DNA of 64,000 nucleotides from an uncultured Clostridia bacterium (GTDB lineage: Bacteria > Bacillota > Clostridia > Christensenellales > CAG-314). The stretch covers positions 1,891 through 65,890 of the forward strand of contig CANQND010000005.1 in the NCBI GenBank assembly GCA_947625115.1, written 5' to 3'. A program made the translations under genes and the position numbers. The notes beneath the pieces were generated by a model. It was not told where the DNA came from. It saw nothing but the letters and a program-made list of their open reading frames with translations, and did no database searches. Numbering within the stretch: the stretch's first letter is position 1; each line of letters opens with the position of its first letter. Shown in pieces: positions 1 to 13,345 of this stretch.

Positions 1-228
1 GGCGGTCTTTCGAAACCCAACGTTACTGACTTGCAAATTTACTCGGCTTTTCGTGAAGCCATAAGCGAGTACGAAGTGCATGGTTCTTTTACTGTGCAAA
101 TGACTGCAACTTACGAGGGTCAAACTTACACGTCAAGTACGAAAAGTATCGACGTTACTTTTGATGGTGACGCATTGTTCTTGCCTGTCAGTGAGTTGGC
201 ATTGGATCAAGACCACATTCTCGCATAG
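1..228 (+). CDS. Phage-element protein, partial (5' end outside window)
   Basis: Frame is open from base 1 to TAG at 226-228. Beta-rich; C-terminus LPVSELALDQDHILA resembles that of the next ORF. Confidence 0.65.
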   Translation, partial: GGLSKPNVTDLQIYSAFREAISEYEVHGSFTVQMTATYEGQTYTSSTKSIDVTFDGDALFLPVSELALDQDHILA

Positions 229-238
229 GGGGGCAATT

Positions 239-826
239 ATGGACAAGCAAGAAAAAATAATTACGATCGTGACGGTTGCGTTGCTTGTCCTCGCTGCCGT
301 CATAGTAGTGCTTGTGTGGGGCGCGTACAGCAATTGGTTCAAAACCGATTTCGAGTACTTGTACCTTACGTCGAATGGTGAACGTCTGCAACAATTTGAA
401 ACCTATCGCTTGGGCGATGTGCAGTTGGACGTTCACCAATTCGGCGGCAAAAGCGGTTTTTCCGTTCGTGTAGTGGCTCTTGCGGAAGAAGATTTCACTT
501 ACACCGTTGACGGCAAGTACTACAACTTTGTTGATGAGCTTGCATGCAAGGACGTAACCGAGGCTTTCGGCGTTGTTTCGGGCAAAAGAAGTTTTGTATT
601 GCATGCCCGTAGCGATATACTCGACATTTTGCAAGCTATCTATCCGAATAGCGTTGTCGCGCTCATTAGCGATCTCGATCAGCCGATACACTTTCATCTT
701 GTAGTCACGGACAAGGCGGCGAAACATAGCTTTGAACTGACGTTTTGCTGCAAAATGCCCGTGACTGACATCGAGATAGATCCTGATCACGTATTTACAA
801 GTGGAGGACTGTTATGCGTAAGTTAG
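239..826 (+). CDS. Phage-element membrane-anchored protein (N-terminal TM helix)
   Basis: GGGGGG RBS then ATG at 239 (MDKQEK). Hydrophobic IITIVTVALLVLAAVIVVLVWG; overlaps the next ORF. Confidence 0.75.
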   Translation: MDKQEKIITIVTVALLVLAAVIVVLVWGAYSNWFKTDFEYLYLTSNGERLQQFETYRLGDVQLDVHQFGGKSGFSVRVVALAEEDFTYTVDGKYYNFVDELACKDVTEAFGVVSGKRSFVLHARSDILDILQAIYPNSVVALISDLDQPIHFHLVVTDKAAKHSFELTFCCKMPVTDIEIDPDHVFTSGGLLCVS

Positions 827-2871
827 CAATTGTTTTATTGGCAGTATTGTTTGTTGTCGCTTTGGGCGGCGGATATTCCGCTGCCTTTGCTGATGACATT
901 AACGAGAATTTTGCCACCTCGTATGTGTTGGATGATCTCGCCGGGGCTAATATAGACGGCAAGGTTTTCAACGTTCAAGACTATCCGCAGGACGTCAAGG
1001 GCGAGTTGCGGTTGATTGCTTTTATGGAATATGCTTACAGCGAAAAGGAGGATCTGCGAGATTACTATGGGTTGTATTTCTACCTGTACAATCCCCGTGC
1101 AATTCAATTTACCGACGACGAGCGCAACAAGGTACAGATTGCCACGGAATACGAACAGCAGGGGAATGAGCTGATACCCACCAAATGGGAAAAGTTCAAC
1201 CTCAAACTGTGCAGCATATCCGCCGAGCGATTGTTTGTTAAGTTCAGAGTGGACAACGTTGCCGCTATCTACGAGCGAGTATCTCAACATCCTGAACTAC
1301 GTCGTTATGATATTTCGGGTTTGGAACTTGTAACTCCCAGTAGCACCAATGCCAAAGAGTACGGTGTTGGCGGAACGTGGCAATATTCAGGCTACGCCCG
1401 CGGCTGCGGCGATGACGTCTTGGAAAATACTTTGCAGTGCAACGCAAGCACCACGCAGGTTTTGCAGCTTGACGATCTGCACCATACATATTACCGTAAT
1501 TGGATAGAGGAGTACAAAAACGGGTTCAATAGTGACGGAATAATAGCCGGCAGAAAGGCGCAACAACTTAATTCGGTGTATTTCAGTGTTCCCAACTACT
1601 ATGTAGAGCAGTATAAACGTTTGTACAGCATTCAAGCGGAAACATACCGTTATTTGACGTCGCCGATTGTAGTCATTACAGATAAATATATTACAAGCAA
1701 TCAAGCCGACTCTTACTACAATCGGTTGCTTTCTCAGCGTAATCTTTATGACCCGTCTAAGCGGGATAATGCAATGTCTGCAACTTTGTATTGGGACTAC
1801 GGCTCTGGCTTGGTTCATTCTTCTAACGTTGGCAGAACTGCGTATAACTACTTCGACAGGGAGTACAGCGACACGTTGCACACTCTCGCTTGGGTTTTCC
1901 GTCAAGATAAGCGCGCTGATGAGGTGAGCGTTGAGTCTGCCGATCTGTTGAGGTATATGTCTGAGTACAGTGATTTATTTGATGATCATTCTATTCGTGG
2001 CAAATATGCTTCGGATTTATTTGCCGATCATTATTACAGTTATGGAATGAATTACAGTTCGTTCTCTAACGGTTACTACCCAATAGATTTGGACGTGTCC
2101 GGGGATAAAGATTTTGTCTTTACAGAAAGCGATAGTACGCAATCTGCTTGGGACAGGTTTTTCAACGGGCAAAACCATGTGGACGGCAAACCTTTTTCGC
2201 CCATAGTGGAAGTGAGCTACAACGATGTGAAAGGGTTGACCGACGACGAGCTTGCTCAGAAGTATTACATAGCTAAAGAGGACGCAACGGACTTTTACAA
2301 TTACGTGTGGAGTAACTCGGACAGGACGGTGTACTTGTTCCACTTTGCTCAGAGCGACTACTATTCCAATGACGTGCGTGCTTATGCAAAATTTTCAGTG
2401 TATGAGAATAACAATGTCGGTTTTGTTGCCCAAGAGGTTGCCTATCTTGATTTTGATATAATCTCTATGGGGTACGAAAACGATATGGGACATATTGAGA
2501 TAATTCCGGTTGTAAGCAATCCCGTTGACATAGTTTCTTCCATTGAGTCGGGCAGCCCTGTAACGGGTTGGGATAAGGTTTTGGACGAATTGGAGGACTT
2601 TTGGAACAGGGTCGAGAACTTTTTCAACCGTGTCGGAAACTTTGCCACAGAAAATTGGTGGCTTTTCGTCATACTCGGAGTGTTAATACTGTTCGGAGTT
2701 CTCAGTTATTTCTTCCCCGTACTGCGAGTAGTTTTCAAGTGGCTTTGGATAGGGCTTAAATGGCTGCTGAAAATCTTGTGGTGGATAGTTTCCGCCCCTG
2801 CGCGTCTGATCGTGCTGATTGCTAACAGCATAAAGAACCGAGCGGAGAGAAGATCCGGCACAAAGACATAA
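814..2871 (+). CDS. Large secreted, C-terminally membrane-anchored phage protein (pIII/spike-like adsorption protein candidate)
   Basis: GGAGG RBS; signal peptide MRKLAIVLLAVLFVVALGGGYSAAFA; Trp-rich C-terminal TM/amphipathic segments followed by a basic tail; located upstream of the ATPase. Confidence 0.7.
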   Translation: MRKLAIVLLAVLFVVALGGGYSAAFADDINENFATSYVLDDLAGANIDGKVFNVQDYPQDVKGELRLIAFMEYAYSEKEDLRDYYGLYFYLYNPRAIQFTDDERNKVQIATEYEQQGNELIPTKWEKFNLKLCSISAERLFVKFRVDNVAAIYERVSQHPELRRYDISGLELVTPSSTNAKEYGVGGTWQYSGYARGCGDDVLENTLQCNASTTQVLQLDDLHHTYYRNWIEEYKNGFNSDGIIAGRKAQQLNSVYFSVPNYYVEQYKRLYSIQAETYRYLTSPIVVITDKYITSNQADSYYNRLLSQRNLYDPSKRDNAMSATLYWDYGSGLVHSSNVGRTAYNYFDREYSDTLHTLAWVFRQDKRADEVSVESADLLRYMSEYSDLFDDHSIRGKYASDLFADHYYSYGMNYSSFSNGYYPIDLDVSGDKDFVFTESDSTQSAWDRFFNGQNHVDGKPFSPIVEVSYNDVKGLTDDELAQKYYIAKEDATDFYNYVWSNSDRTVYLFHFAQSDYYSNDVRAYAKFSVYENNNVGFVAQEVAYLDFDIISMGYENDMGHIEIIPVVSNPVDIVSSIESGSPVTGWDKVLDELEDFWNRVENFFNRVGNFATENWWLFVILGVLILFGVLSYFFPVLRVVFKWLWIGLKWLLKILWWIVSAPARLIVLIANSIKNRAERRSGTKT

Positions 2872-3014
2872 AAAAACACCCCGGACACTTGTCCAAGGTG
2901 TTGCGGAGCCTCACAGCCAGCCTTCTTGGGAAGGTACTTTCACTCTCATAAGCTACTCCGCTCGGTCGGTCTTAGCTTGCTTTCCGACTTTAGCCGTTGT
3001 ATGGCTACCGAGAG
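2870..3014 (-). ncRNA. Candidate structured antisense sRNA inside the prophage
   Basis: Minus-strand TTGACA(3044-3049)-17 bp-TAGAAT(3021-3026) with extended TG. Several stems, ending in hairpin AACACCTTGGAC/GTCCGGGGTGTT plus a U tract. Confidence 0.6.
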
Positions 3015-3048
3015 GATTTAATTCTAACATAAAAAGGAGATGTTGTCA

Positions 3049-3387
3049 ATGGCTAAAATTGTAAACAGGAAAAGAAAACCTAACGAAGCAAACCTCGCCG
3101 GCTTAATGGTTGTGGGGTCTGAGGTCGCGTGGGATAAGTTTCACAAACGTTGGCGTAAGGGAGTTTATGGCGCCGTGGACAAAGAATTGCCATTTATTAC
3201 CACTACCGTGCAGTCCAAGGACGGCACGCGGCGCAGAAAATTTGTAAATGACGTCACGGAACTGCCGAACGTCACGAAGGAGCGGGTAATGGCTTTCTTT
3301 GACAATAAGCAAAACGCCCAACGTAGCAAATGCTACCTTGTAGATAAGGCTCTTTACGACGAAATGCTTAACGGGCGCAAAAGATGA
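3049..3387 (+). CDS. Small basic phage-element protein, unknown function
   Basis: AAGGAG RBS at 3034-3039 favours ATG 3049 (MAKIVN). Stop overlaps the ATPase start (ATGA). Confidence 0.7.
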   Translation: MAKIVNRKRKPNEANLAGLMVVGSEVAWDKFHKRWRKGVYGAVDKELPFITTTVQSKDGTRRRKFVNDVTELPNVTKERVMAFFDNKQNAQRSKCYLVDKALYDEMLNGRKR

Positions 3388-4301
3388 TCACTATTATTTT
3401 CGGCAAACCGGGTGCGGGCAAGACGGCGTATTTAGTCAGTCAGATGTTACGGTTTCTTGGCAACAGCCGCGAGGCTTACGAGCTACTTTGGAATTGTCGG
3501 GACAGAGTGATCGCTCTGGATCAGCGCGGCTTGCAGTACACCGTTCCCACCACTCCGCCCGTCTACACCAATTTTCCCGTGTCGGCGCACGTTGGATACA
3601 ACAAATGGCGTAGTAGCTTATATGTAGACGGCTTTCACCTCGGTTTGGAAAACGACTTCGTACCAATTACCAATGTATTGCCGGGCGCGGTGATTGGCTT
3701 GACCGAGGTGCAACGGTACTACAATAGTAGAAACTCCAAGGACAGCAAAAAGGCTTTGCCCGATTGGGTCAGCAGGTTTTACGAGGAACACCGCCACTAC
3801 GGCTTGCAGATCTACTTGGACCTACAACGCATTGGGCTGTGCGACTTGAATATCCGAGAACTTGCAGGGCGCATTGTTGAGGTGTACGACCTGCAACACG
3901 AGGTTGATCGCCGCGGCAACATTCTCGCCTCGAAGTTTTCTCTCCGTTGCTGGGACACTCTTGCCGCCGCCGAACGTTACGTGGACAACGATAGCTTGAC
4001 CAACTTTGAGCACGAGGAGTATATCTTCGAGGGCAACGTGTTCGAGGCGTACACCTCGGCGTGTTATTTCGACGCTTTTTTGCCAAGCTGCGGCAGGGAC
4101 TTTTCCCTGCGTACCCACACCGAAGCGTTGCGGAATGACGCCACGTTGCAGTTAGAATTTTCAAAACAGATCTATCGGCAAAGTGCGCCACGCGGATTTT
4201 ATCCCGGCGAGGCGGAAGATCTCCGCAAAGAGTGGCTCAAAAATGGCAAAGACGAAACGTTGCAAGAATACATTTTGAGGACGGTTTATGGAACTACATA
4301 A
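3384..4301 (+). CDS. Zot-like / inovirus pI morphogenesis ATPase (no TM segment)
   Basis: N-terminal Walker A GKPGAGKT, VYTNF, Walker-B-like IGLTEVQRYY, HRHYG, LQR and DLNIR motifs typical of the Zot_N family. Confidence 0.85.
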   Translation: MITIIFGKPGAGKTAYLVSQMLRFLGNSREAYELLWNCRDRVIALDQRGLQYTVPTTPPVYTNFPVSAHVGYNKWRSSLYVDGFHLGLENDFVPITNVLPGAVIGLTEVQRYYNSRNSKDSKKALPDWVSRFYEEHRHYGLQIYLDLQRIGLCDLNIRELAGRIVEVYDLQHEVDRRGNILASKFSLRCWDTLAAAERYVDNDSLTNFEHEEYIFEGNVFEAYTSACYFDAFLPSCGRDFSLRTHTEALRNDATLQLEFSKQIYRQSAPRGFYPGEAEDLRKEWLKNGKDETLQEYILRTVYGTT

Positions 4302-4737
4302 CTTTTTAACTCAATACTACGAACTCTTTTCTGAGTTGGAGATCAACAAGGCGCAACTGCCCGAAGAGTTCTATGTGGTAAGCCGCAAGTTGTTACTTAG
4401 CCAATTTGAGCAAGCAACAACTACTTTTCTTGACGAGCAGGAGCTTCAATTTGCCGAGAAACGCTTCAAGCTGAAATTCGATGTCGCGAATTACACCCCG
4501 CGCCGTCGTTTAATCTTTTGGTGGAACCGTAAAGCAAAGGCTTTACTCAAACAATACCGCGCTGAATTAGAGCTTTATCTTTCGGAGATCTCCAAGGAAA
4601 CACGCGACACCAAGGCAGACAAGAACATTTTGGACGACCTGCCCGCGCAGAGTTCGATTTCAAGCCCCTCAACGTTGCCTGCGCCTACTACTGACTCAAC
4701 CGACCAAACACCTGCACCGCCTCCTACAACACCGTAG
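4288..4737 (+). CDS. Hypothetical phage-element protein with Pro/Thr-rich tail
   Basis: 149-aa ORF with GAGG RBS, overlapping the ATPase end. Confidence 0.65.
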   Translation: MELHNFLTQYYELFSELEINKAQLPEEFYVVSRKLLLSQFEQATTTFLDEQELQFAEKRFKLKFDVANYTPRRRLIFWWNRKAKALLKQYRAELELYLSEISKETRDTKADKNILDDLPAQSSISSPSTLPAPTTDSTDQTPAPPPTTP

Positions 4738-4740
4738 AGA

Positions 4741-4897
4741 GGCAGGTAAGGCTTCTGCGGCGATTGTCAAGAGAGACGGCGGGCTTTATGCTCACGCCGT
4801 AGGCGGGAGGGATAAATCCGTCGGCGACCTTGACAAGAAAGCCGTCAGAGGTTAGGCTCTCCGCTCGGGTGGACGCGTGCGTCCGCCCCTACCTGCC
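4741..4897 (+). other. Long imperfect palindrome, single-strand-origin/packaging-signal-like
   Basis: Nested pairs GGCAGGTA(4741)/TACCTGCC(4890), CTTCTGCGGC/GCCGTCAGAGG, TTGTCAAG(4764)/CTTGACAA(4829), GACGG/CCGTC and TTTAT/ATAAA in the gap before rep. Confidence 0.6.
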
Positions 4898-4995
4898 ACA
4901 CCAAACAAACACTTCACCGCAGCAGCAGCGCTGCAACGAGCGCAGCCGTGCGCGCGGCTGTGGAGGTGAGATCCTTTGGCCCGCGCAGCGGGCCG

Positions 4996-5024
4996 TGTGC
5001 CACCTACTTGATACTGGTGGCACA
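4996..5024 (+). other. Rolling-circle double-strand origin (nick-site hairpin)
   Basis: Perfect 9-bp stem TGTGCCACC/GGTGGCACA. The loop TACTTGATACT contains CTTGATA, the phiX174/pC194-type nick motif; ~70 bp upstream of rep. Confidence 0.8.
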
Positions 5025-5092
5025 ACATACAGGCAAATGGGCATTTTTGCCGTTGCCTATGGCATTTTTTACAAAAATTTCGAGGTGAAAAA

Positions 5093-6157
5093 ATGAATTA
5101 TCTGTATGACAAAGACACAGGCGAGAAGATCCCCAACGTTTATGAAAAGGACGGGCAAATTGTAACGATTGAGTATGAGTATTTCGACAGTGTGATTAGC
5201 ACAACGGAGTCCACCGGTGTTGAAGTTTTGAAGTTTGCTAAGCCGTTCCGAGTTCCCCGCCACGTGGCACTTGACGCCGAAATGTGTTCAGACTACTTTA
5301 CAAATTTTGAGTTTGCTGAGGCGGTAAGTACCCAGCGGTGGAAGTCGGTAGGCGGAACATTGGTTCCGACAGATCCAATGGTAAAAGTGGCAGATTTGTT
5401 GGCTTCGAGGCAACAAGCAGCAAGGGAGAGTAAAAGGCGATTCTACAACTACGCTTTGGGTGAAAACAATTGGCAGTACTTTTGTACATGGACTTTTGCC
5501 GATCCTCGCTGCCGTTCCGACAAAGATTTACTGTATGCTACATACAGCAAGTTTTTGGCGGTCATCCGCAAGTCTAACCCGGACGTAAAAGCGATTGCAA
5601 CGTACGAAGAGTTTGAGAAGGGCGGTTACCATATGCACGCATTGCTTGGCAATTGTTTGCTGCGTTTGACACCGGCACTGAACCCGCATACCGGCGAGTT
5701 TGTTTATTCCGAGTTTGGTAACCAAATATTTAACTGTATCGACTGGCAGGCGGGTTTCAGCACGGTGTGCTGTATTGTTCCGGGATCTACCAAGCAGCAA
5801 GTTGTTAATTACTTGGGAAAGTACTTGACCAAGAAATGCCCGGCTCCGTATCGTTGTAAACGGTTTTTCCATACTCTCAACTTGGACTACCGTGACTGTT
5901 ATATGTTCAACAGTCAAAATAGAAGTGATCCGGTTGTTCGTTTTCTTCTGAATGTCAAGGACGAACTTAACAACGGTGAGCGTCCCAATGTTATCCGAGA
6001 AATGGTTGACGCTTTTGATTTGGAACAGGTGAAGCGTAGTGAAACCGTTACTGTTTACCGCTCGAAAGTAGATATTGCCGGTTACTTGGACAACTATCCC
6101 GATGTGTTCACTCCGAAAAAAAAATTAGTGTCAAATTTAGTGTCAGAGCAAAAATAA
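5093..6157 (+). CDS. HUH rolling-circle replication initiator (Rep)
   Basis: Motif 1 FCTWTF, motif 2 YHMHALL, motif 3 YLGKYLTK (two Tyr); GAGGTG RBS. Confidence 0.88.
   Translation: MNYLYDKDTGEKIPNVYEKDGQIVTIEYEYFDSVISTTESTGVEVLKFAKPFRVPRHVALDAEMCSDYFTNFEFAEAVSTQRWKSVGGTLVPTDPMVKVADLLASRQQAARESKRRFYNYALGENNWQYFCTWTFADPRCRSDKDLLYATYSKFLAVIRKSNPDVKAIATYEEFEKGGYHMHALLGNCLLRLTPALNPHTGEFVYSEFGNQIFNCIDWQAGFSTVCCIVPGSTKQQVVNYLGKYLTKKCPAPYRCKRFFHTLNLDYRDCYMFNSQNRSDPVVRFLLNVKDELNNGERPNVIREMVDAFDLEQVKRSETVTVYRSKVDIAGYLDNYPDVFTPKKKLVSNLVSEQK
6125..6145 (+). repeat. Tandem TTAGTGTCA direct repeat, putative integrase arm-type sites
   Basis: TTAGTGTCA-AAT-TTAGTGTCA about 80 bp from the tRNA 3' end. Confidence 0.55.
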
Positions 6158-6222
6158 AGGGAAACACTTTTTAGGTGTTTCCTTTCATTTTGGGCTGTTT
6201 TCGCCTGTTTTTGCCCATTTTT

Positions 6223-6311
6223 TGGCGGAGAGAACAGGATTTGAACCTGCGGAGGCTGTTAACCTCGCACGCTTTCCAAGCGTGTGCCTTAAACCGCTCG
6301 ACCATCTCTCC
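6223..6311 (-). tRNA. tRNA-Ser(GGA)
   Basis: GGAGAGATGGTCGAGCGGTTTAAGGCACACGCTTGGAAAGCGTGCG...GGTTCAAATCCTGTTCTCTCCGCCA. Long variable arm, anticodon GGA, encoded CCA. Confidence 0.97.
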
Positions 6312-6342
6312 ATAAAGGCGATACGACTTTTGTTGCCATATA

Positions 6343-6371
6343 AGAATACCAAAAAATTGACATTTAGTCAA
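6343..6371 (-). promoter_or_regulatory. sigmaA-type promoter of tRNA-Ser
   Basis: TTGACT-17 bp-TATTCT. Confidence 0.65.
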
Positions 6372-6437
6372 TAGAATTGAAGTAAAAATATCTTTTCGAC
6401 GACCGAAACGCATTTGAATGCGGTGGTTGCGGGGATT

Positions 6438-6604
6438 CCTCTTCCACCACTGCGTGGTCCCCCTCCCCCTCGTCGCCGCACGGCTTTGGTTAGCACCAAG
6501 CGCGTAAACGCGCTCGGTACCGCTAACAGTCGGCGGCTCCTCTTCCCACACAAGTATTAGCGTACTTGCACGGGGACCCATTTTGCTTATCGACGGGGAC
6601 GGTC
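6438..6604. repeat. Hairpin-rich intergenic element (REP/MITE-like, possibly nested)
   Basis: GC-rich stems ACCAC/GTGGT, GTTAGC/GCTAAC enclosing AGCGCG/CGCGCT, CAAGTA/TACTTG; no credible ORF. Confidence 0.4.
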
Positions 6605-6692
6605 TGTTTGGTGAACACGTCTTGCGACGAGGAGGGTATTTTCAACAACGGGGCTACTGTCTGAGGGAGCGGGATATGTTCAAGATATGTGC

Positions 6693-6725
6693 AAAACAAA
6701 GGACCCGCCAAAGCGAGTCCTTTGT
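6693..6725 (-). terminator. Intrinsic terminator of the lipoprotein operon
   Basis: ACAAAGGACTCGC-TTTG-GCGGGTCCTTTGT followed by T's on the minus strand. Confidence 0.75.
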
Positions 6726-6817
6726 AAAAGGCAAAAGATTTTTGAGTTGCCGCCATTGGGTTACGACTTACATCTTTGTGCTTTTTCAGTCAAAATGCGG
6801 CAAACAAATCGTTCAAG

Positions 6818-9800
6818 TTATGCGTCAACGCGCGTAAATTGTCCCGAATAGGGGTCCCCAGATGTGTTGCAAAGTTCCAGCGCGCCGCTCTCCAACTCCG
6901 CCAAATACAACTCCAAAGAAAATCCGCCCGTTTTTGTTATCTTAAACGTATATAAGTTTACACAAGTTCCGCTACCGCTGTAATAATAAGTATCTTCCGT
7001 AGTCGCTGTAACCGTTTCGGTAATTTTGTCGCCGCCGTCAACGGTGTAGGTGAGAGTAAGTTCTACCGCGCCGTCCTTGTTTGCAACAACAATTTCCGTA
7101 AATACATAGGTACTACTCACAAATCCACTACCCTTAAACGAAACGTTACCCTCGTACTTTGTTCCCTCAACGGGATCAACGGGCTGTGCGAGTTCGGGGT
7201 TTTCAAGAGTCATTTCGCCGATAGTGTCGCCACTAACCACAAAGCTCAACTTGGACTTGTCCGCTGTTCTGCCAACAGAAAAAGCTGTGGTTGTCTTATA
7301 GGGTTGGACAGACTTGTTCACAAAAGGATACAATTTCCACCAAACCGCAACGGTTGTTGAACCTTTCCAAGTGCTGAGATTTTGCGTCAAAAAAGTACCC
7401 GTACTATTACGATTGTCTGTTTTACTGAAAGTGTCAGTGTACTCTTGTCCGCCAAGAATAAATGTCACTGTCGCTTGCGTATCATCACCGTCTATCAAAG
7501 TTACAGACTTGAAAACAATCGTATACTCATTAGACGTAGGCGTGTACGAAACTTCGCCGACATATTTAAGCAGATTGCTATCCTCAGACGCGGAAGCGTC
7601 CTTTTGGAAAATTCTTGCAACCGCGTTGTCGTCGCCCGTTGCGGAGTAACCCGTAAGTTGATCCTTGCCCTCATTGAGAGTGAGAATAAACGTTGTTTTT
7701 GCTGACGACAAACTGTAAACTATTACCGCATACTTGTCAATACGATACAGCGTTGCAGGATTGTTTTGTGAGTTGATATTGTAGGTAACCACGCCCAACG
7801 CACTAATGGTAAAATAGGACGTACCGCTATCGGCGTTCCATTTGCCCACAAGGTCTTCTGCCGCAACATCTTTGAGTTCGGCAGTCTTGCTGAACACCGT
7901 GCCGTCAATGGAAATACTGTCGGCAGAAGTTACAACAATACGAAACGTGTCAACGCTATCGGGGTCGAGGTACTTGTTTACCGCTTCCAATGTCAACGGG
8001 TGGAGATATTTTCCGTCCTCAATAGCGGAGCCAACAACGTCACTGCCGCTTGCACCCGCCTCGGAGATCACGATTTCTTTGTTGCCGCTCTTCCAAACAC
8101 CGCAAATATCGGCAAGGGATACAGATGCTCCCTCTTCCCAAATAGCATACAACGGCAACGTGAAGCCACCCTCGCTTTCTACAAGATATTGCTGATAGGT
8201 ACCATAATTTACGTTCGTGATAGAACCATTATTGATAATGATAGTACCTTGCTCATCGTAGGACCAACCCTTGAAAGTGTGACCTGCATAGGTAAACGGA
8301 CACACCGCGGGTAACAGAGAGCCGATGGAGGCTTCCATTGTAAAGGTGATATCTTTTTGAACTTCACCTGTGGCTTCGCCGGGGTTCAATGCCAACGTTA
8401 TTGTTGCTTTTGTCCAAGAAGCCATTATGCGAATGTCTTCGTCGGGCATTTGGTAAGTTGCGTCGGGTTGCAAGTCCGTTGCTATTTTCTTCCAACCTTG
8501 GTCTGTGTTGTGTTGAATTGTCCACCCTGCAAAAGTGTAACCTTGGCGTTTCCAAGTACATTGCGGAAGAGTGATCGTTGCACCCGCCTCATAGTTACCT
8601 GCGCCCTCGGGTTCGCTTCCCGAAAAGCCAGCCTCACTATTAGCACCTCTGTAATACTCTACCGAGTGACCCGTGGCGGGAGGGATAACCTCTCCGCTAT
8701 CTTTTGTGAAAACGGCAGAACATTCGCTACCCAAAAGGTCAATGGTAATAGTCAATTGACCCTCTTCCGCGACAACGGTCAGCGTGTAAGCGTCCTCAAA
8801 TGTTCCCGTACCTACGTTACCGTCCCAAGTAAGCGTGTAAGTATCTTGCCACTCTGCACTAATCAGTTTGAGAGTGTCGCCGTTAAGCTCGGCACTTGTG
8901 AAATTGTAACTTTCTCCGTAAGAGTCTACCAAATCGGGCATTCCGCTCGGATTGCTGTACTTTCCGTCAGCGTCAGCGGGTTTGGTTGACGGTGCTGTCC
9001 AAACACATACTACCGTAACGTCACTGTTAAGAGTATAATCGTTGATAGTTTCGCTCGTGTAGGATTGTCCCAGAATATTGTAGGACAAGGGGTTATTTCT
9101 CTCCGAATCCATACACCAATAAGCAATATAGTCCGCACTAAGGTTACTACCCTCTTCTAAGTAGATAACGAAATCGTTCCCTGCCTTGTCGGAATTTTGG
9201 AAAGTTACCGCCACAAGGTCTACCTCAAAGGTATAATTTTGACTGTCGCTTTCATTGTTGAACACAAGAACGAGCTTGCGCCCTTGCAATGTACCCGAAA
9301 CAAACGTTATTCCGCAACCATCGTTCATTTCGTCGTAGCCAACAACCGTAATTTTGCCGTCGGCTGAAATGGTATATTCAAAGTAGTATTCGGTATAACC
9401 GCCGTCAAACATATCACCTTGAAATTGCGCACAAGAATAGTCTTCCTCAAACAATTGCAACAACAACATTGTGTCGTCGTCTTGTGTGTGAAGAACGAAC
9501 GCGTTAAACGGTTCTGTTGTAAACGGTTTCCCCGTGGGGGGGGTGACTTCACCCTCCCACACACATTCGATTTCGGTATCTTCTGCGGGTACTATGTAGC
9601 TTCCAAAGTCTTCCGCGTCAGATTGCACGCCGCCTACCTTGTAGAACGGGGGACAATTGTCTTGTTCATCGTACGTATATTGCGTTATGTCAACAGCCGT
9701 ACCTGCGGGATAATACACGTTTTTGTCCGTGCCTTTGTTATCGATGTTTTTAAGAGTGATTTGCACCAAATTGCCCGCAAACGTGTATTGAGTTGTGTTT

Positions 9801-12800
9801 CCTGACGTGGTAAAGCTGAATACCAATTTCAACGTACGTCCGTGCAACGAACCCGATACAAATGCCAAGCCTACCGAACCATCAAAATCGGCAACGGTTA
9901 CTGTGCCGTCGGTTGCAATCGAATAGGTAAATCCGCCGGATATGCCCCATTCTCCCATGCCGACACCGCCGACAAGTTGAACCATACCGGACATTCCCTC
10001 TTGTTCTTCCGAGAACAACATTACCGCACCCGAAACATCGCCGTCGCTCAACACCATTGCGGCGTCGATAAGTTCTGTCGTGAACGGAGCTTCTGTGCTT
10101 TCGTTCCATACGGCAACATAATGCGTTGTTGCGGTGATAGTGACTGTGGAACCAACAGCGTGCAACGTTTTGGGTTCCGCCTCGTCGGCTTTGTCGTTCC
10201 AACCGCCGAAAGTGCCGCCGACATAGGGGTGATCGTCCGCATCGGGGAAAGTTACTTCCAAAGAGCCGTCGTCGTCTTCGTCCCAAATAACGGTCGCGTC
10301 GGTGCCGTCAAGATAGTCGAAAGTAGCGGCAACACGGAATTTTGCCGTGAGCGTGATTTCTTCGGTTATGGGTGTGCTACTAATATCAAACACCTCGCCG
10401 TCCTTTAACCAAGCGTAGAACAGCTTGCCTTGGGGGGCTTTGGATTCGATACCGTCGTAAGTGAAGAGCGTACCGTACTCTACTTCAACGGTTTCGGTTT
10501 GATCGTTGATAGAAAGAGTAACAGTGATGTTGTACACGTAGTCGCCGAAAATATATTTTTCGCCGCCGACAGTAGCAAGACCGCTGAATCCTATAAAATA
10601 TCCATATTGCGATACTGCCGTCAATTCAAAGACGTCGCTGCCGAAAGTAAAGCCGACAGTAGCAGTTTCTTCTTCTGCCGACGTACTCTTGACGGTGTAC
10701 GTGCCTTGTACGGGGTCACTTGCCGCCTTGAAAGTTGCCTTTCCGAAACCGTCCAAAGTCAATGTGGCCTTTTCGTCCTTGGAGGTATAAGTTCCCTCGT
10801 AACCGTCAGAGAACACGGCTTTGCCGTTTTCGGTTTTGAATATCATTTGTGAGGAATAGGTTGTGACGGTGTACAAACCCGTGCCGCCATCGTAGGTGTA
10901 GGGATATATCGAAGAATAGCTTTCGGAATAGAAAATTTCCACATAGCCGTCATCGCGCACCACTACCTTTGTGTATCTGCCGCCCTCATCTACTTGGAAA
11001 GTCTGTTGGAATACGGCAACAATTGTAACGTCGCCTTGTACGGTTACCGTTGTTCCGCTGATCAAATCTTCATAGTCCTCGCGTTTCCAACCGAGGAAAG
11101 TCCAACCGTCTTTTTCGTAGGTACATTCGGGCAATTCAATGGGTTCTCCCGCAACGCCTTGTTTGGCGTCAATTTTGTCGGTGTGACCGTCAACGCTGAA
11201 AGTAACGGTTACGCGTTTTGCCCAAATTGCATAAAGCGTGAGATTGTCCTTAACTTCGGTACCATCAAAATCGAAATAAGTTGTTGAATCACTACTTATT
11301 CCCCAACCCTTGAATTCGTAACCGTCGCGGGTGGGTTGTTGTGCGGGACGAGTGGCGTGTCCGCCGTAGTCGAACGTTTGCGGTTCGGGCAAGTTGCTTA
11401 CGCCATCGCCGTTAGCCTCAAATGTTACCGTTACGGTAGAACGCTCTTCCCAATGAGCAACAAATGTTGTATCTTCTTTGATAGTGTAGGGGAACGTGAC
11501 TTTTTGATTGTCTACAAACCAACCCGTAAACGCGTGTTTATCCCATTCGGGCTTGGTGGGTTCATATATGCTGTTGCCGGGATACACTTGTTGAGGACTC
11601 GGAGCAACGCCGTCGGGACATTCGCCAAGTTCAAACGTTGCCGTTACTTGTTCCGCCCTGTGGAATGTTTTATCAAACGAATAATCCCAAGTGGCTTCCG
11701 CATGCATTGTAAACTCTTCGAGAGAGTTCAACGTAAGAGTGACTGTATAAGCCCCTATCGTGAAAGAAACAACCGTTTTTCCGTCCACAACAGAAGTGCC
11801 TGTGGGGGAAAGATCGCCGCTGTAATCGTAGTTAAGCTCGTGGAAAGAGATTGTGCCGTCTTCGCTTACTTTGAGCAAGTCGTATGTGCTAAGAAGCTCA
11901 AATGTTTCGCCGCAAGACCAAATGCCCTCAAAGTCGGCGAGATCCAAACCTTGCTCTTCTTCGGCAAAAGTCAACTCCAATATTCCGCCTTCTTCGGTAA
12001 CTTCGGTGTAGCCCTCGCCTGCGGCTATCGCGGCTCCCTCTGCCGTCAAATCAAGCGGTTCGTCATTGAAAGTTGCGCTTTCCACTTCGTTGCTACTTGA
12101 ACGAGCAGCCACTAACCAATAGATAGGTGCACCAACGTTGAGATAGAACAACTCTTCCTCTTCGGGGCCACCAACGATGATGATTTCTGCCATTTCACCT
12201 GTGATCTCAACCGCGTCGTCGCCGACTTCCAAAGCGATATACACAAGCGTACCCTCGATACTGCCGTAGCCGACAGGTTCGTCACTTTGGAAAACAGTGA
12301 TTGCACCCTCTTCAATTGAGTAGGCATATTCGCCTTTCAATTCCAAAGAGTCGGAGTCGCCAAGTTCGGAAATAAACAAAGTGAAATAGTCGCCGCTTGA
12401 TTCTGTGGTGAATATTACAGCATAGCCTTGTTCCAAATCGACAATTGCGCCGTCGAAAGGTTCGGTGGTGAAAGGTTCGTCCTCTCCCGAGCCGTCCTCG
12501 GTGTATTGCGCAGTGTAGGTTACGTCGCCTGCGGGCATTTGCTTTTGAGAACCGGCAGGAGCGTAATCACCATTGTTGTCTATCCAAACTTCAAATATCC
12601 AGCCATCTTCCGCATCGGGTCCGTCGGGCAACGTGTAGGTTGCGCCCTTTGCCAACTGTTGAGTTGCAGGTACGGTTGCGCCCTCTGCCGCGTGATCGCC
12701 GAGTTCGTATTTAAGCGTGTACTCGGTGACGGTGGAACCTGTTTGTTTCCACTGTGCAGTGAGAGTTTTTTCGCTTGCGGGCATTGTGTAGGTTGCGCCT

Positions 12801-13288
12801 GCTTGATAGACGGTTGTGCCGTCGCTCCAACCGTTAAACTCCCAGCCATCTTCCGCATCGGGTCCTGCGGGCAACGTGTAGGTTGCACCCTCTGCCAACT
12901 GTTGAGTTGCAGGTACGGTTGCGCCCTCTGCCGCGTGATCGCCGAGTTCGTATTTAAGCGTGTACTTGGTGACGTCGGAACCCGCATCGGTCCATTGCGC
13001 CGTGAAAGTTACGTCTGCAACCAGCGTGTACTCGGCACCCGCTTGATAGACGGTTGTGCCGTCGCTCCAACCTGCAAAGTTGTGGTTTGCATACGTAAAC
13101 GTGTTACTTGGGAGGTGTATTTTTTCACCGACGTTTGCCGTGATAGGCTCGGGGGCGTTCCCCGTTGCGCCATCGCCTCCCACAAAGGTTGCGGTTGCGG
13201 CTTGGTCGCAGGCAACAAGCGAAAGACTTGCTACCAATGCAACAACAAGAACCAGACAAAGCAACCATCGCGTTGTTCTTTTTGTCAT
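6818..13288 (-). CDS. Large surface lipoprotein with InlB B-repeat/Listeria-Bacteroides-type repeats
   Basis: GGAGGG RBS before MTKRTT; lipobox LSLVAC; many FxGW...TxxAxW repeats; acidic; ~2156 aa. Confidence 0.85.
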   Translation of the reverse strand: MTKRTTRWLLCLVLVVALVASLSLVACDQAATATFVGGDGATGNAPEPITANVGEKIHLPSNTFTYANHNFAGWSDGTTVYQAGAEYTLVADVTFTAQWTDAGSDVTKYTLKYELGDHAAEGATVPATQQLAEGATYTLPAGPDAEDGWEFNGWSDGTTVYQAGATYTMPASEKTLTAQWKQTGSTVTEYTLKYELGDHAAEGATVPATQQLAKGATYTLPDGPDAEDGWIFEVWIDNNGDYAPAGSQKQMPAGDVTYTAQYTEDGSGEDEPFTTEPFDGAIVDLEQGYAVIFTTESSGDYFTLFISELGDSDSLELKGEYAYSIEEGAITVFQSDEPVGYGSIEGTLVYIALEVGDDAVEITGEMAEIIIVGGPEEEELFYLNVGAPIYWLVAARSSSNEVESATFNDEPLDLTAEGAAIAAGEGYTEVTEEGGILELTFAEEEQGLDLADFEGIWSCGETFELLSTYDLLKVSEDGTISFHELNYDYSGDLSPTGTSVVDGKTVVSFTIGAYTVTLTLNSLEEFTMHAEATWDYSFDKTFHRAEQVTATFELGECPDGVAPSPQQVYPGNSIYEPTKPEWDKHAFTGWFVDNQKVTFPYTIKEDTTFVAHWEERSTVTVTFEANGDGVSNLPEPQTFDYGGHATRPAQQPTRDGYEFKGWGISSDSTTYFDFDGTEVKDNLTLYAIWAKRVTVTFSVDGHTDKIDAKQGVAGEPIELPECTYEKDGWTFLGWKREDYEDLISGTTVTVQGDVTIVAVFQQTFQVDEGGRYTKVVVRDDGYVEIFYSESYSSIYPYTYDGGTGLYTVTTYSSQMIFKTENGKAVFSDGYEGTYTSKDEKATLTLDGFGKATFKAASDPVQGTYTVKSTSAEEETATVGFTFGSDVFELTAVSQYGYFIGFSGLATVGGEKYIFGDYVYNITVTLSINDQTETVEVEYGTLFTYDGIESKAPQGKLFYAWLKDGEVFDISSTPITEEITLTAKFRVAATFDYLDGTDATVIWDEDDDGSLEVTFPDADDHPYVGGTFGGWNDKADEAEPKTLHAVGSTVTITATTHYVAVWNESTEAPFTTELIDAAMVLSDGDVSGAVMLFSEEQEGMSGMVQLVGGVGMGEWGISGGFTYSIATDGTVTVADFDGSVGLAFVSGSLHGRTLKLVFSFTTSGNTTQYTFAGNLVQITLKNIDNKGTDKNVYYPAGTAVDITQYTYDEQDNCPPFYKVGGVQSDAEDFGSYIVPAEDTEIECVWEGEVTPPTGKPFTTEPFNAFVLHTQDDDTMLLLQLFEEDYSCAQFQGDMFDGGYTEYYFEYTISADGKITVVGYDEMNDGCGITFVSGTLQGRKLVLVFNNESDSQNYTFEVDLVAVTFQNSDKAGNDFVIYLEEGSNLSADYIAYWCMDSERNNPLSYNILGQSYTSETINDYTLNSDVTVVCVWTAPSTKPADADGKYSNPSGMPDLVDSYGESYNFTSAELNGDTLKLISAEWQDTYTLTWDGNVGTGTFEDAYTLTVVAEEGQLTITIDLLGSECSAVFTKDSGEVIPPATGHSVEYYRGANSEAGFSGSEPEGAGNYEAGATITLPQCTWKRQGYTFAGWTIQHNTDQGWKKIATDLQPDATYQMPDEDIRIMASWTKATITLALNPGEATGEVQKDITFTMEASIGSLLPAVCPFTYAGHTFKGWSYDEQGTIIINNGSITNVNYGTYQQYLVESEGGFTLPLYAIWEEGASVSLADICGVWKSGNKEIVISEAGASGSDVVGSAIEDGKYLHPLTLEAVNKYLDPDSVDTFRIVVTSADSISIDGTVFSKTAELKDVAAEDLVGKWNADSGTSYFTISALGVVTYNINSQNNPATLYRIDKYAVIVYSLSSAKTTFILTLNEGKDQLTGYSATGDDNAVARIFQKDASASEDSNLLKYVGEVSYTPTSNEYTIVFKSVTLIDGDDTQATVTFILGGQEYTDTFSKTDNRNSTGTFLTQNLSTWKGSTTVAVWWKLYPFVNKSVQPYKTTTAFSVGRTADKSKLSFVVSGDTIGEMTLENPELAQPVDPVEGTKYEGNVSFKGSGFVSSTYVFTEIVVANKDGAVELTLTYTVDGGDKITETVTATTEDTYYYSGSGTCVNLYTFKITKTGGFSLELYLAELESGALELCNTSGDPYSGQFTRVDA
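12599..12974 (-). repeat. Near-identical intragenic direct repeat (period 243 bp)
   Basis: 12599-12731 vs 12842-12974 both encode YTLKYELGDHAAEGATVPATQQLAxGATYTLPxGPDAEDGW. Confidence 0.9.
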
Positions 13289-13345
13289 TATTTTTCCCTC
13301 CAAAATAGATTTTTGTTTTTTTATTAACTCAACGAGTAGCCCCCG

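Follow-up and report, generated by a model that had tools for sequence, protein, structure and literature searches.

The window analysed here is a 64,000-nucleotide (nt) stretch of a contig from an uncultured Clostridia bacterium (GenBank assembly GCA_947625115.1, contig CANQND010000005.1, positions 1,891 to 65,890), and it begins within a run of plus-strand prophage genes. An earlier note, made from the letters of this DNA, had placed a hidden structured RNA gene on the minus strand between two of those genes. The predicted small RNA sits in the 168-nt gap that separates a gene for a 685-amino-acid (aa) protein from a short basic open reading frame (ORF), a gap that is one of only two sizeable non-coding stretches in the prophage. 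Our results support that placement. As judged from its signals, the stretch is a stand-alone small RNA gene on the minus strand, with its own predicted promoter and intrinsic terminator, and promoter, stems and terminator are all clearly conserved in related elements, an outcome that favours an RNA. The features of the window copy are as follows.

3021 to 3049, minus strand: predicted sigma-70-type promoter, with a -35 box TTGACA (3049-3044), a 17-nt spacer, an extended TG (3029-3028) and a -10 box TAGAAT (3026-3021).
2869 to 3014, minus strand: predicted small RNA of ~145 nt, its start placed ~7 nt past the -10 box and its end at the T-run.
3012-3008 with 2965-2961, minus strand: outer stem P1 (CTCGG/CCGAG), perfect in this copy.
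2991 to 3007, minus strand: hairpin P2 (helix 1), TAGCC (3007-3003) with GGCTA (2995-2991), A-rich loop.
2965 to 2988, minus strand: hairpin P3 (helix 2), GTCGG (2988-2984) with CCGAC (2969-2965), variable 14-nt loop.
2903 to 2961, minus strand: stem P4 (helices 3 and 4), GCGGAGUAGC (2961-2952) with GCU (2917-2915) and GCUCCGC (2909-2903).
2921 to 2934, minus strand: hairpin P5 (helix 5), CCTTC (2934-2930) with GAAGG (2925-2921).
2870 to 2902, minus strand: intrinsic terminator, stem 2902-2875 of 12 pairs (two of them U-G), loop AAGU, seven T at 2876-2870.
2911 to 2949, minus strand: 12-codon frame MRVKVPSQEGWL, ATG at 2949-2947, present in 1 of 34 distinct family copies.

With 11 of 12 positions plus the TG, the promoter lies where the earlier note had put it and is the best of 19 promoter-like sites in positions 1-9000, whereas shuffled sequence yields 10.3 such sites at the same 9-of-12 threshold. 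The note had it lying exactly over the ribosome-binding site and start of the basic ORF. This holds for the promoter DNA, whose spacer contains the complement of the ORF's GGAG (3036-3039) and whose -35 box shares one base (3049) with the ATG, the -10 box being outside the ORF; it does not hold for the RNA, whose 5' end is ~20 nt away. The terminator, at 12 pairs, is the best of 22 terminator-like sites in 1-9000, and its T-run overlaps the stop codon of the 685-aa gene (2869-2871). Its stem was said to need G-U pairs that form on the minus strand, and this is the case: the minus-strand stem is continuous by virtue of the two U-G pairs, whereas on the plus strand an internal loop interrupts it and no T-run follows. 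The inner stems that had been named are likewise present. Within P4, the stem GCGGAG (2961-2956)/CTCCGC (2908-2903) comes with two invariant features, the 5-nt bulge GUGAG (2914-2910) and a U-G pair between 2955 and 2909, and P4 encloses both an internal loop with a conserved GAAA and hairpin P5. Fold energy of the single sequence does not discriminate (minus strand, z = -2.28, with 6 of 200 shuffles equal; plus strand, z = -2.55). Because the single-sequence fold is undecided, the case for an RNA gene rests on the relatives, through covariation and strand-specific G-U pairs.

Those relatives are numerous. The 201-nt stretch has three copies in its own genome and more in four genomes of the genus, and a locus search with a degenerate pattern of the two most conserved blocks gave 9 loci in species-representative genomes and 23 in metagenomes. 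The same pattern had no matches in IMG/VR, and the small RNA has none among GenBank phages. In all, we collected 40 distinct copies from genomes and metagenomes of gut Clostridia. Each aligned copy has a promoter of the form TTGACA-17-TTAAAAT or similar and a terminator; by fixed patterns, TTGAC-N16-18-TAnnnT stands at the expected place in 34 of the 40 distinct copies and a hairpin followed by a T-run in 38. From 5' to 3', the family consists of a short 5' tail, P2, AAAG, P3, P4, P5, 2-4 bases and the terminator, which differs by lineage; the P4 consensus is GCGRAGUAGC paired with GCU and GCUYCGC. There are two subtypes, A and B, which differ in the 5' hairpins (P2/P3) and have the 3' module in common. 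Both occupy the same position between homologous flanking genes, and the sequence of the P3 loop depends on the subtype.

Covariation across these copies is extensive. RNAalifold applied to a MAFFT alignment of 24 distinct sequences gave 27 pairs, 15 of them compensatory, and from this alignment we built a covariance model, R1, which scores the window copy at 124.1 bits. In the alignment fitted to R1 (35 matches, 34 distinct rows), 19 of the 27 pairs changed on both sides, compared with a shuffle mean of 13.6; 97.9% of cells pair, against 78.0% in shuffled alignments and 29-41% when the 3' partner is slid; and the covariation score is 0.597, against a shuffle mean of 0.219. Because the second alignment was fitted to the model, we take 15 of 27 from MAFFT as the unbiased count. 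All the inner helices contribute: P2 has two-sided changes in 2 of 5 pairs, with 97.5% of cells paired; P3 in 8 of 8 model pairs; P4 in 5 of 10; and P5 in 4 of 4 model pairs, with 99.3% of cells paired. Read on the minus strand, the helix cells include 82 G-U and 5 A-C combinations, an imbalance that places the helices on the predicted RNA's strand, as opposed to the coding one. A structure of four helices (P2, P3, P4 with its invariant bulge, and P5) is thus conserved with covariation on the minus strand. The outer stem P1, which the earlier note had enclosing P2 and P3, fares less well, being perfect in the window copy but weakly supported in the family, where its registers are ambiguous.

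The RNA represents a strongly supported new structured family that is not catalogued in Rfam. No model among the 4227 of Rfam 15 overlaps 2869-3049 at E<=10, and ten related loci searched at E<=1 gave no match on the RNA, only tRNAs and chance matches elsewhere; the models presumably include C4, ctRNA, SymR, IstR and motifs from phages or gut metagenomes. A search with R1 detected the RNA in 13 of the genus's 47 genomes, at 0-4 copies per genome, and in 8 of a sample of 151 from the order; this sporadic occurrence marks the gene as accessory and rules out a housekeeping RNA. Nor does the RNA appear to encode a peptide. The 12-aa frame that had been read within it does exist, with its start at 2949, but it is not conserved: MRVKVPSQEGWL occurs in 1 of 34 distinct copies, and the closest relative (95% identical) has CTAAGAG where the window has TTATGAG, so we do not regard it as a coding feature. 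A riboswitch or cis-regulatory leader was rejected because no same-strand gene lies behind the terminator, which in the window copy and at related loci points at the 3' end of a gene running the other way, and a type III antitoxin because inspection of the sequence and the alignment reveals a single non-repetitive unit with no tandem repeats.

The RNA gene lies in a compact prophage. The run of plus-strand genes comprises the window's first 6.3 kb and 1.9 kb upstream on the same contig, and all ORFs are on the plus strand from C5:188 through window position 6157. Its genes, and the tRNA that the run abuts, are these.

Before 814, plus strand: small ORFs, then membrane proteins of ~420 aa and 221 aa (gene order).
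814 to 2871, plus strand: 685-aa gene in the position of pIII, convergent with the RNA gene, encoding an N-terminal signal-like segment and a C-terminal membrane anchor.
3049 to 3387, plus strand: basic ORF of 112 aa, ATG at 3049 and GGAG at 3036-3039, heading the run basic ORF, Zot-like ATPase, 149-aa ORF, Rep.
3384 to 4301, plus strand: Zot-like assembly ATPase (PF05707, E 1.8e-07).
4288 to 4737, plus strand: 149-aa ORF, from the ORF list.
5093 to 6157, plus strand: rolling-circle Rep (PF23343, E 6.9e-07).
6223 to 6311, minus strand: tRNA-Ser(GGA).

Judging by this gene make-up (a Zot/pI-type ATPase, a rolling-circle Rep, a small genome and genes on one strand), the element is an inovirus-like prophage. 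A PHROG search of the prophage proteins matched PHROG 197. The 685-aa protein has no match in Pfam or PHROG, and its homologues hold the same position in related loci. No major coat protein was identified in the prophage gene run.

The analysis of related loci indicates that the conserved entity is not the RNA alone. In most loci the RNA is divergent from a basic ORF of 105-124 aa, whose GGAG is within the spacer of the RNA promoter and whose ATG abuts the -35 box, and in elements of the Zot type the order is pIII-like gene, RNA, basic ORF, Zot and 149-aa ORF. Searching 401 genomes of the order with a profile of the protein turned up 12 basic-ORF loci, spread over 10 genomes. Nine of these have the family RNA directly upstream and divergent. 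At the other three, which hold the most distant homologues, R1 scores at noise level only, and the same place is occupied by a unit of different sequence, 100-130 nt long, hairpin-rich and ending in a terminator, with a promoter of the form CTTGACAT-17-TATAAT/TAAAAT over the ORF start. A divergent small RNA unit is thus found at 12 of the 12 basic-ORF loci examined. Because distant homologues keep an RNA unit of different sequence at the same place, the conserved entity is, on the comparison of predicted features, the pair: a basic ORF and a divergent small RNA with its promoter over the translation start.

The protein member of this pair belongs to a family of 131 homologues, all unnamed and none with a Pfam family. 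An AlphaFold2 model of the basic protein (mean predicted local distance difference test score, pLDDT, 73.6) is mixed alpha/beta and has no membrane helix; residues 1-13, with pLDDT <50, are disordered and basic and include a conserved motif, NRxRK. The protein has no match in Pfam or PHROG and none in IMG/VR or GenBank phages. With the model as query, Foldseek against the PDB returned nothing at E<=0.001 and a wide VIA-align search returned a best Z of 2.8, with no PDB relative, and the ESM Atlas gave a best score of 0.81, to hypothetical viral proteins only.

Several loci depart from the usual arrangement. At L078 (G194:C7:135000-152000), an RNA/basic-ORF pair is present with no Zot or Rep in 10 kb, and the basic ORF heads other genes, including a DUF3846 gene, one for a Listeria-Bacteroides-repeat protein of 629 aa and several for membrane proteins. 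This locus adjoins a HipB/HipA pair and has a CRISPR array ~3-5 kb off, near which cas2, cas1, csn2 and cas9 could be read from their sequence. At L005 (G015:C2) and L053 (G035:C5), two RNA copies point the same way, 620-960 nt apart, with a basic ORF and the truncated start of Zot (85 aa at L005) between them, and at L005 one copy is subtype A and the other subtype B. Such a layout points to the RNA gene as a place where elements recombined.

Copies of the RNA that lack an intact basic ORF were seen in at least ten contexts (the flanks read were 1.5-2.5 kb on each side in most loci). Several of these orphans retain CTCC in the promoter spacer together with a truncated start of the basic ORF, and so look like modules that lost their ORF. 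Genes near the orphans encode, among others, a tyrosine integrase, large serine recombinases, XRE-type regulators and a Fic protein, and some orphans adjoin tRNA genes.

How might such a pair operate? The small RNA is probably a control switch of the element, and the reading that we favour, tentatively and on the arrangement of the predicted genes, is that it is a cis-antisense regulator or immunity RNA of the basic-ORF/Zot/Rep operon. In our scan of 1-9000, positions 2872-3048 contained nothing resembling a promoter or a terminator on the plus strand. The run from the basic ORF through Zot and the 149-aa ORF to Rep would therefore be transcribed by read-through from the 685-aa gene. Such transcripts would cross the RNA gene, and the mRNA leader of the basic ORF would therefore be fully complementary to the small RNA. 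In this model, the RNA would be made constitutively in the lysogen and would pair with the leader, first by loop-loop contacts through the variable P2 and P3 loops, and its convergent transcription would collide with incoming sense polymerases. Together, pairing and collision would hold down the assembly and replication genes, and the RNA acting in trans would repress an incoming phage of the same type, that is, confer immunity. The allelic subtypes A and B at one position fit immunity types, and orphans near integrases and repressor-like genes in other integrated elements fit a lysogeny or immunity function, also in trans. All three roles that the earlier note had suggested for the RNA (a silencer of the basic-protein and ATPase genes, an RNA antitoxin and an immunity RNA) are compatible with this genomic context: an RNA gene that in every case is antisense to the predicted leader of the basic ORF, a divergent RNA unit at 12 of 12 ORF loci, and orphans next to integrases.

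A number of observations weigh against a cis-antisense or immunity role. The small RNA stops ~20 nt short at its 5' end, leaving the ribosome site and start codon uncovered. It contains long invariant segments that are unpaired or bulged (GAGCGRAGUAGC, GUGAG and GAAA), which simple antisense action does not need and which point to contact with a protein or within a tertiary fold. For orphan copies there is no matching sense gene, so that their function would have to be in trans or different. No public RNA run contains the stretch; expression, transcript ends and sense read-through are all inferred, and the model-fitted alignment favours structure. A duplex scan against the 8.1-kb phage plus strand found no trans target beyond shuffles, the best value (-50.2 kcal/mol) falling within the range of 20 shuffles (-41.2 to -53.9). 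Masking of the start codon by the leader, through an 11-bp pairing in the window copy, is not conserved (mean z = -0.45 over 16 modules). Finally, CTCCGCTCGG (4859-4868, plus strand, upstream of rep) is an exact 10-nt complement of the RNA's invariant core but is absent from the 95%-identical relative L015. An exact 10-nt copy of the same core, CCGAGCGGAG, falls at 2838-2847 (plus strand), among the final codons of the gene for the 685-aa protein. The relative lacks CCGAGCGGAG as well as CTCCGCTCGG, and both are thus probably chance.

By analogy, a unit of this kind would work most like the phage RNAs Sar and OOP and like the plasmid countertranscripts that act with a Cop protein. P22 Sar, from the arc-ant intergenic region, and lambda OOP are cis-antisense small RNAs encoded inside phage operons. 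As in those cases, the RNA described here is short and intergenic, has its own predicted promoter and terminator, runs against the flow of the operon, is complementary to the sense mRNA and may be linked to lysogeny or immunity. However, Sar and OOP are simple RNAs of ~70-77 nt that overlap a ribosome site or a 3' end, whereas this RNA is ~145 nt long, with four covarying helices and long invariant unpaired segments, ends short of the ribosome site and has orphan copies outside phages; the Rfam searches found no sequence or model similarity to either. Gram-positive plasmids provide a second parallel, in that pMV158 RNAII with CopG, pIP501 RNAIII with CopR and pT181 RNAI are countertranscripts of rolling-circle and theta replicons that work with a small Cop protein. 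Here too there is a rolling-circle replicon and a multi-stem-loop antisense RNA with its own predicted promoter and terminator, intergenic in the rep operon and beside a small basic protein gene. Unlike in the plasmids, rep lies further downstream, separated from the RNA gene by 2 kb and three genes, the leader complementary to the RNA is that of the basic ORF instead of rep, the 112-aa protein has no ribbon-helix-helix or helix-turn-helix match, and no Rfam countertranscript RNA matches.

Known RNA immunity factors are also relevant, namely the CI RNA of P4 and the C4 RNA of P1 and P7. As with these, the candidate immunity determinant would be a small structured phage RNA, with allelic subtypes, in place of a repressor protein. 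In contrast, CI and C4 are cut from longer transcripts and act on separate target sites, whereas this RNA is a predicted primary transcript for which no separate target site was found in the 8.1-kb scan, and it has no Rfam match. In the literature as we sampled it, lysogeny control in the filamentous phages Pf and CTX is attributed to repressor proteins. The main text of a paper on an Enterocloster inovirus (PMC10061712) makes no mention of a small RNA, antisense, intergenic or repressor, and titles and abstracts on Gram-positive inoviruses yielded no description of a small RNA, which at that level is not proof of absence.

The invariant unpaired segments raise an alternative that we consider possible, though unlikely: that the small RNA and the basic protein encoded next to it bind each other specifically. 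The RNA might sequester or neutralise the protein, as a sponge or as an antitoxin of type III character without repeats, or the Arg/Lys-rich N-terminus might bind the nascent RNA and alter its termination or stability. The single-stranded and bulged segments, with the invariant U-G pair, resemble a protein-binding surface, the protein offers a disordered basic N-terminus (residues 1-13, with NRxRK), and an RNA unit is present at 12 of 12 ORF loci, with other RNAs beside distant homologues, as might be expected of co-evolving partners. On the other hand, neither fold nor family ties the basic protein to RNA binding, the RNA persists in many loci that lost the protein, and adjacency is equally expected under the antisense model.

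The loss of the protein from so many loci could also mean, though we think this rather less probable, that the unit is a toxin-antitoxin or addiction module of type I character, in which overproduced basic protein would be harmful, the divergent antisense RNA its antidote, and the module a stabiliser of the prophage and other carrier elements. The layout resembles that of divergent type I loci: as in tisB/istR-1 and symE/symR, the RNA is directly upstream, divergent and complementary to the 5' leader, and orphans are commoner among the RNAs than among the protein genes. In length, SymE is close to the basic protein. The asymmetry is marked, with RNA lacking its ORF in at least ten contexts and none of the 12 ORF loci lacking a divergent RNA unit, and several orphans retain only a truncated ORF start, but the sample of 12 loci is small. 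Moreover, the protein (105-124 aa) is hydrophilic and has no membrane helix, unlike the hydrophobic peptides usual among type I toxins, the RNA exceeds those of such loci in size and is much better conserved, both in sequence and in structure, and the module is fixed in the phage gene order, with the ORF between the pIII-like gene and Zot in many phage lineages, as a core gene would be.

We regard as improbable a third alternative, that the RNA acts in trans on the host, for example as a decoy or regulator directed at a defence system and carried on mobile elements, with the neighbouring ORF incidental. What brings it to mind is proximity to CRISPR loci (on C80, in G008, in the L026 group and at L078) and the tandem arrays of other small RNA units at L024, L031, L022 and L014. 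Family or sister copies are less than ~5 kb from a CRISPR locus in 4-5 of ~25 distinct contexts, which is not a controlled count, short flanks having been read at most loci, and mobile elements commonly insert near defence loci. Complementarity to the local CRISPR repeat is no better than that of shuffles for subtype A, subtype B or the cas9-adjacent RNA of G008 (28-133 of 200 shuffles equal the duplex energy). Least credible of all, and very improbable, is a DNA-level element of the single-stranded phage genome, such as a packaging signal or complementary-strand origin with incidental transcription signals. In its favour, the stretch is one of two sizeable non-coding regions of the prophage, and the intergenic DNA of filamentous phages is known to contain structured origins and hairpins for packaging. 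However, the helices need their G-U pairs on the minus strand (82 against 5) when the packaged strand is expected to be the plus, 34 of 40 copies retain the promoter and 38 the terminator, and the unit is also present in elements that have neither Zot nor Rep, and in the chromosome as an orphan.

The finding itself is real and extends to an RNA family and an RNA-ORF module, whose role is a proposal. Filamentous phages of Gram-positive gut bacteria are barely characterised, and if the antisense reading is right, a switch made of one -10 box, one RNA and one ORF may decide between prophage silence and virion production in gut commensals. With 40 distinct copies that covary clearly and match nothing in Rfam, the RNA family is ready for curation, and a fixed partner RNA provides the first functional handle on the 131-member unnamed protein family. 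We can also outline a broader and more speculative model, which we think unlikely as a whole, in which RNA and basic protein form a widespread control module and the RNA replaces a repressor as the determinant of lysogeny and immunity. The P2 and P3 loops would set the immunity type, the core would be read by the basic protein or a host factor, and the orphans would be domesticated anti-phage immunity. If this were true, the module would span Gram-positive filamentous prophages and other integrated elements and would have gone unrecognised so far, and the orphan RNAs, often with CRISPR loci or integrases for neighbours, would be kept by bacteria to ward off this phage group through RNA-based immunity. 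The orphans and the neighbouring arrays of small RNAs suggest a larger, unexplored layer of RNA genes in the mobile elements of Clostridia.

The CRISPR-adjacent copies are arranged as follows. In the window's own genome, L003 (G000 contig C80, 1-2591) has an orphan subtype-B RNA at ~929-1081, beside which the basic ORF is reduced to 25 codons and the pIII-like gene to ~270 nt of its 3' end. On one side of this RNA is half of a CRISPR repeat, degenerate in sequence (856-873), and on the other a type II array that starts at 1350 and has 19 repeats of 36 nt; a repeat-like anti-repeat candidate is at 490-522. Independent Logan contigs (839-nt records, runs X1 and X2) bridge the left junction (873/874) and not the right one, and none of the array's 18 spacers matches the window or any locus at E<=0.01. 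At L007 (G008:C8, 1501-1650, minus strand), a sister RNA scoring 27.9 bits with R1 is between cas9 (start 1965) and a two-repeat array (1342-1443). It resembles the window copy in promoter type and contains three hairpins, its terminator matches the window's at 88% identity over 43 nt, and a 22-codon ORF remnant abuts its -35 box. This cas9-adjacent RNA has GGCUUGAAAGACGUAGAC in common with one of the sister RNAs that accompany the distant basic-ORF homologues. We initially took it for a trans-activating CRISPR RNA (tracrRNA) because of the terminator identity and the adjacent cas9, and withdrew that reading because it has no anti-repeat complementarity. In the own genome, the best tracrRNA candidate is the minus strand of L066 (G000:C24, ~2575-2735), a promoter-terminator unit with a repeat-like segment directly upstream of cas9 (repeat duplex -18.2 kcal/mol, equalled by 5 of 200 shuffles). 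On the metagenome contigs L026, L036, L037, L039 and L044, an orphan is ~320 nt past the degenerate last repeat of a type I-C-like array and convergent with it, and homology between these contigs breaks ~22 nt upstream of the -35 box, as if the predicted RNA unit marked the edge of a variable insertion.

In L024 and L031 (~1080-1870), L022 (~1610-1790) and L014 (~2170-2330), all read in the orientation of the RNA, the family RNA is one member of a cassette-like tandem array in which as many as five different small units follow one another. All units have a promoter of the form TTGAC-17-TATAAT, and their terminators are near-identical and lineage-specific. The other units have no Rfam match at E<=1, and one, beginning GCGGUAUCCUGGGU, is common to L024 and L014.

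Two further features of the window may be mentioned. The second non-coding stretch of the prophage, 4738-5092, is 355 nt long, G+C-rich and upstream of rep, which makes it a candidate origin region, and it contains a terminator-like hairpin on the minus strand (4939-4914). Just past the tRNA-Ser gene, an ORF of 2161 aa (6818-13303, minus strand) has many GW..GTT.Y..G.. repeats, which by eye resemble the Listeria-Bacteroides repeats (Pfam) of the 629-aa protein at L078.

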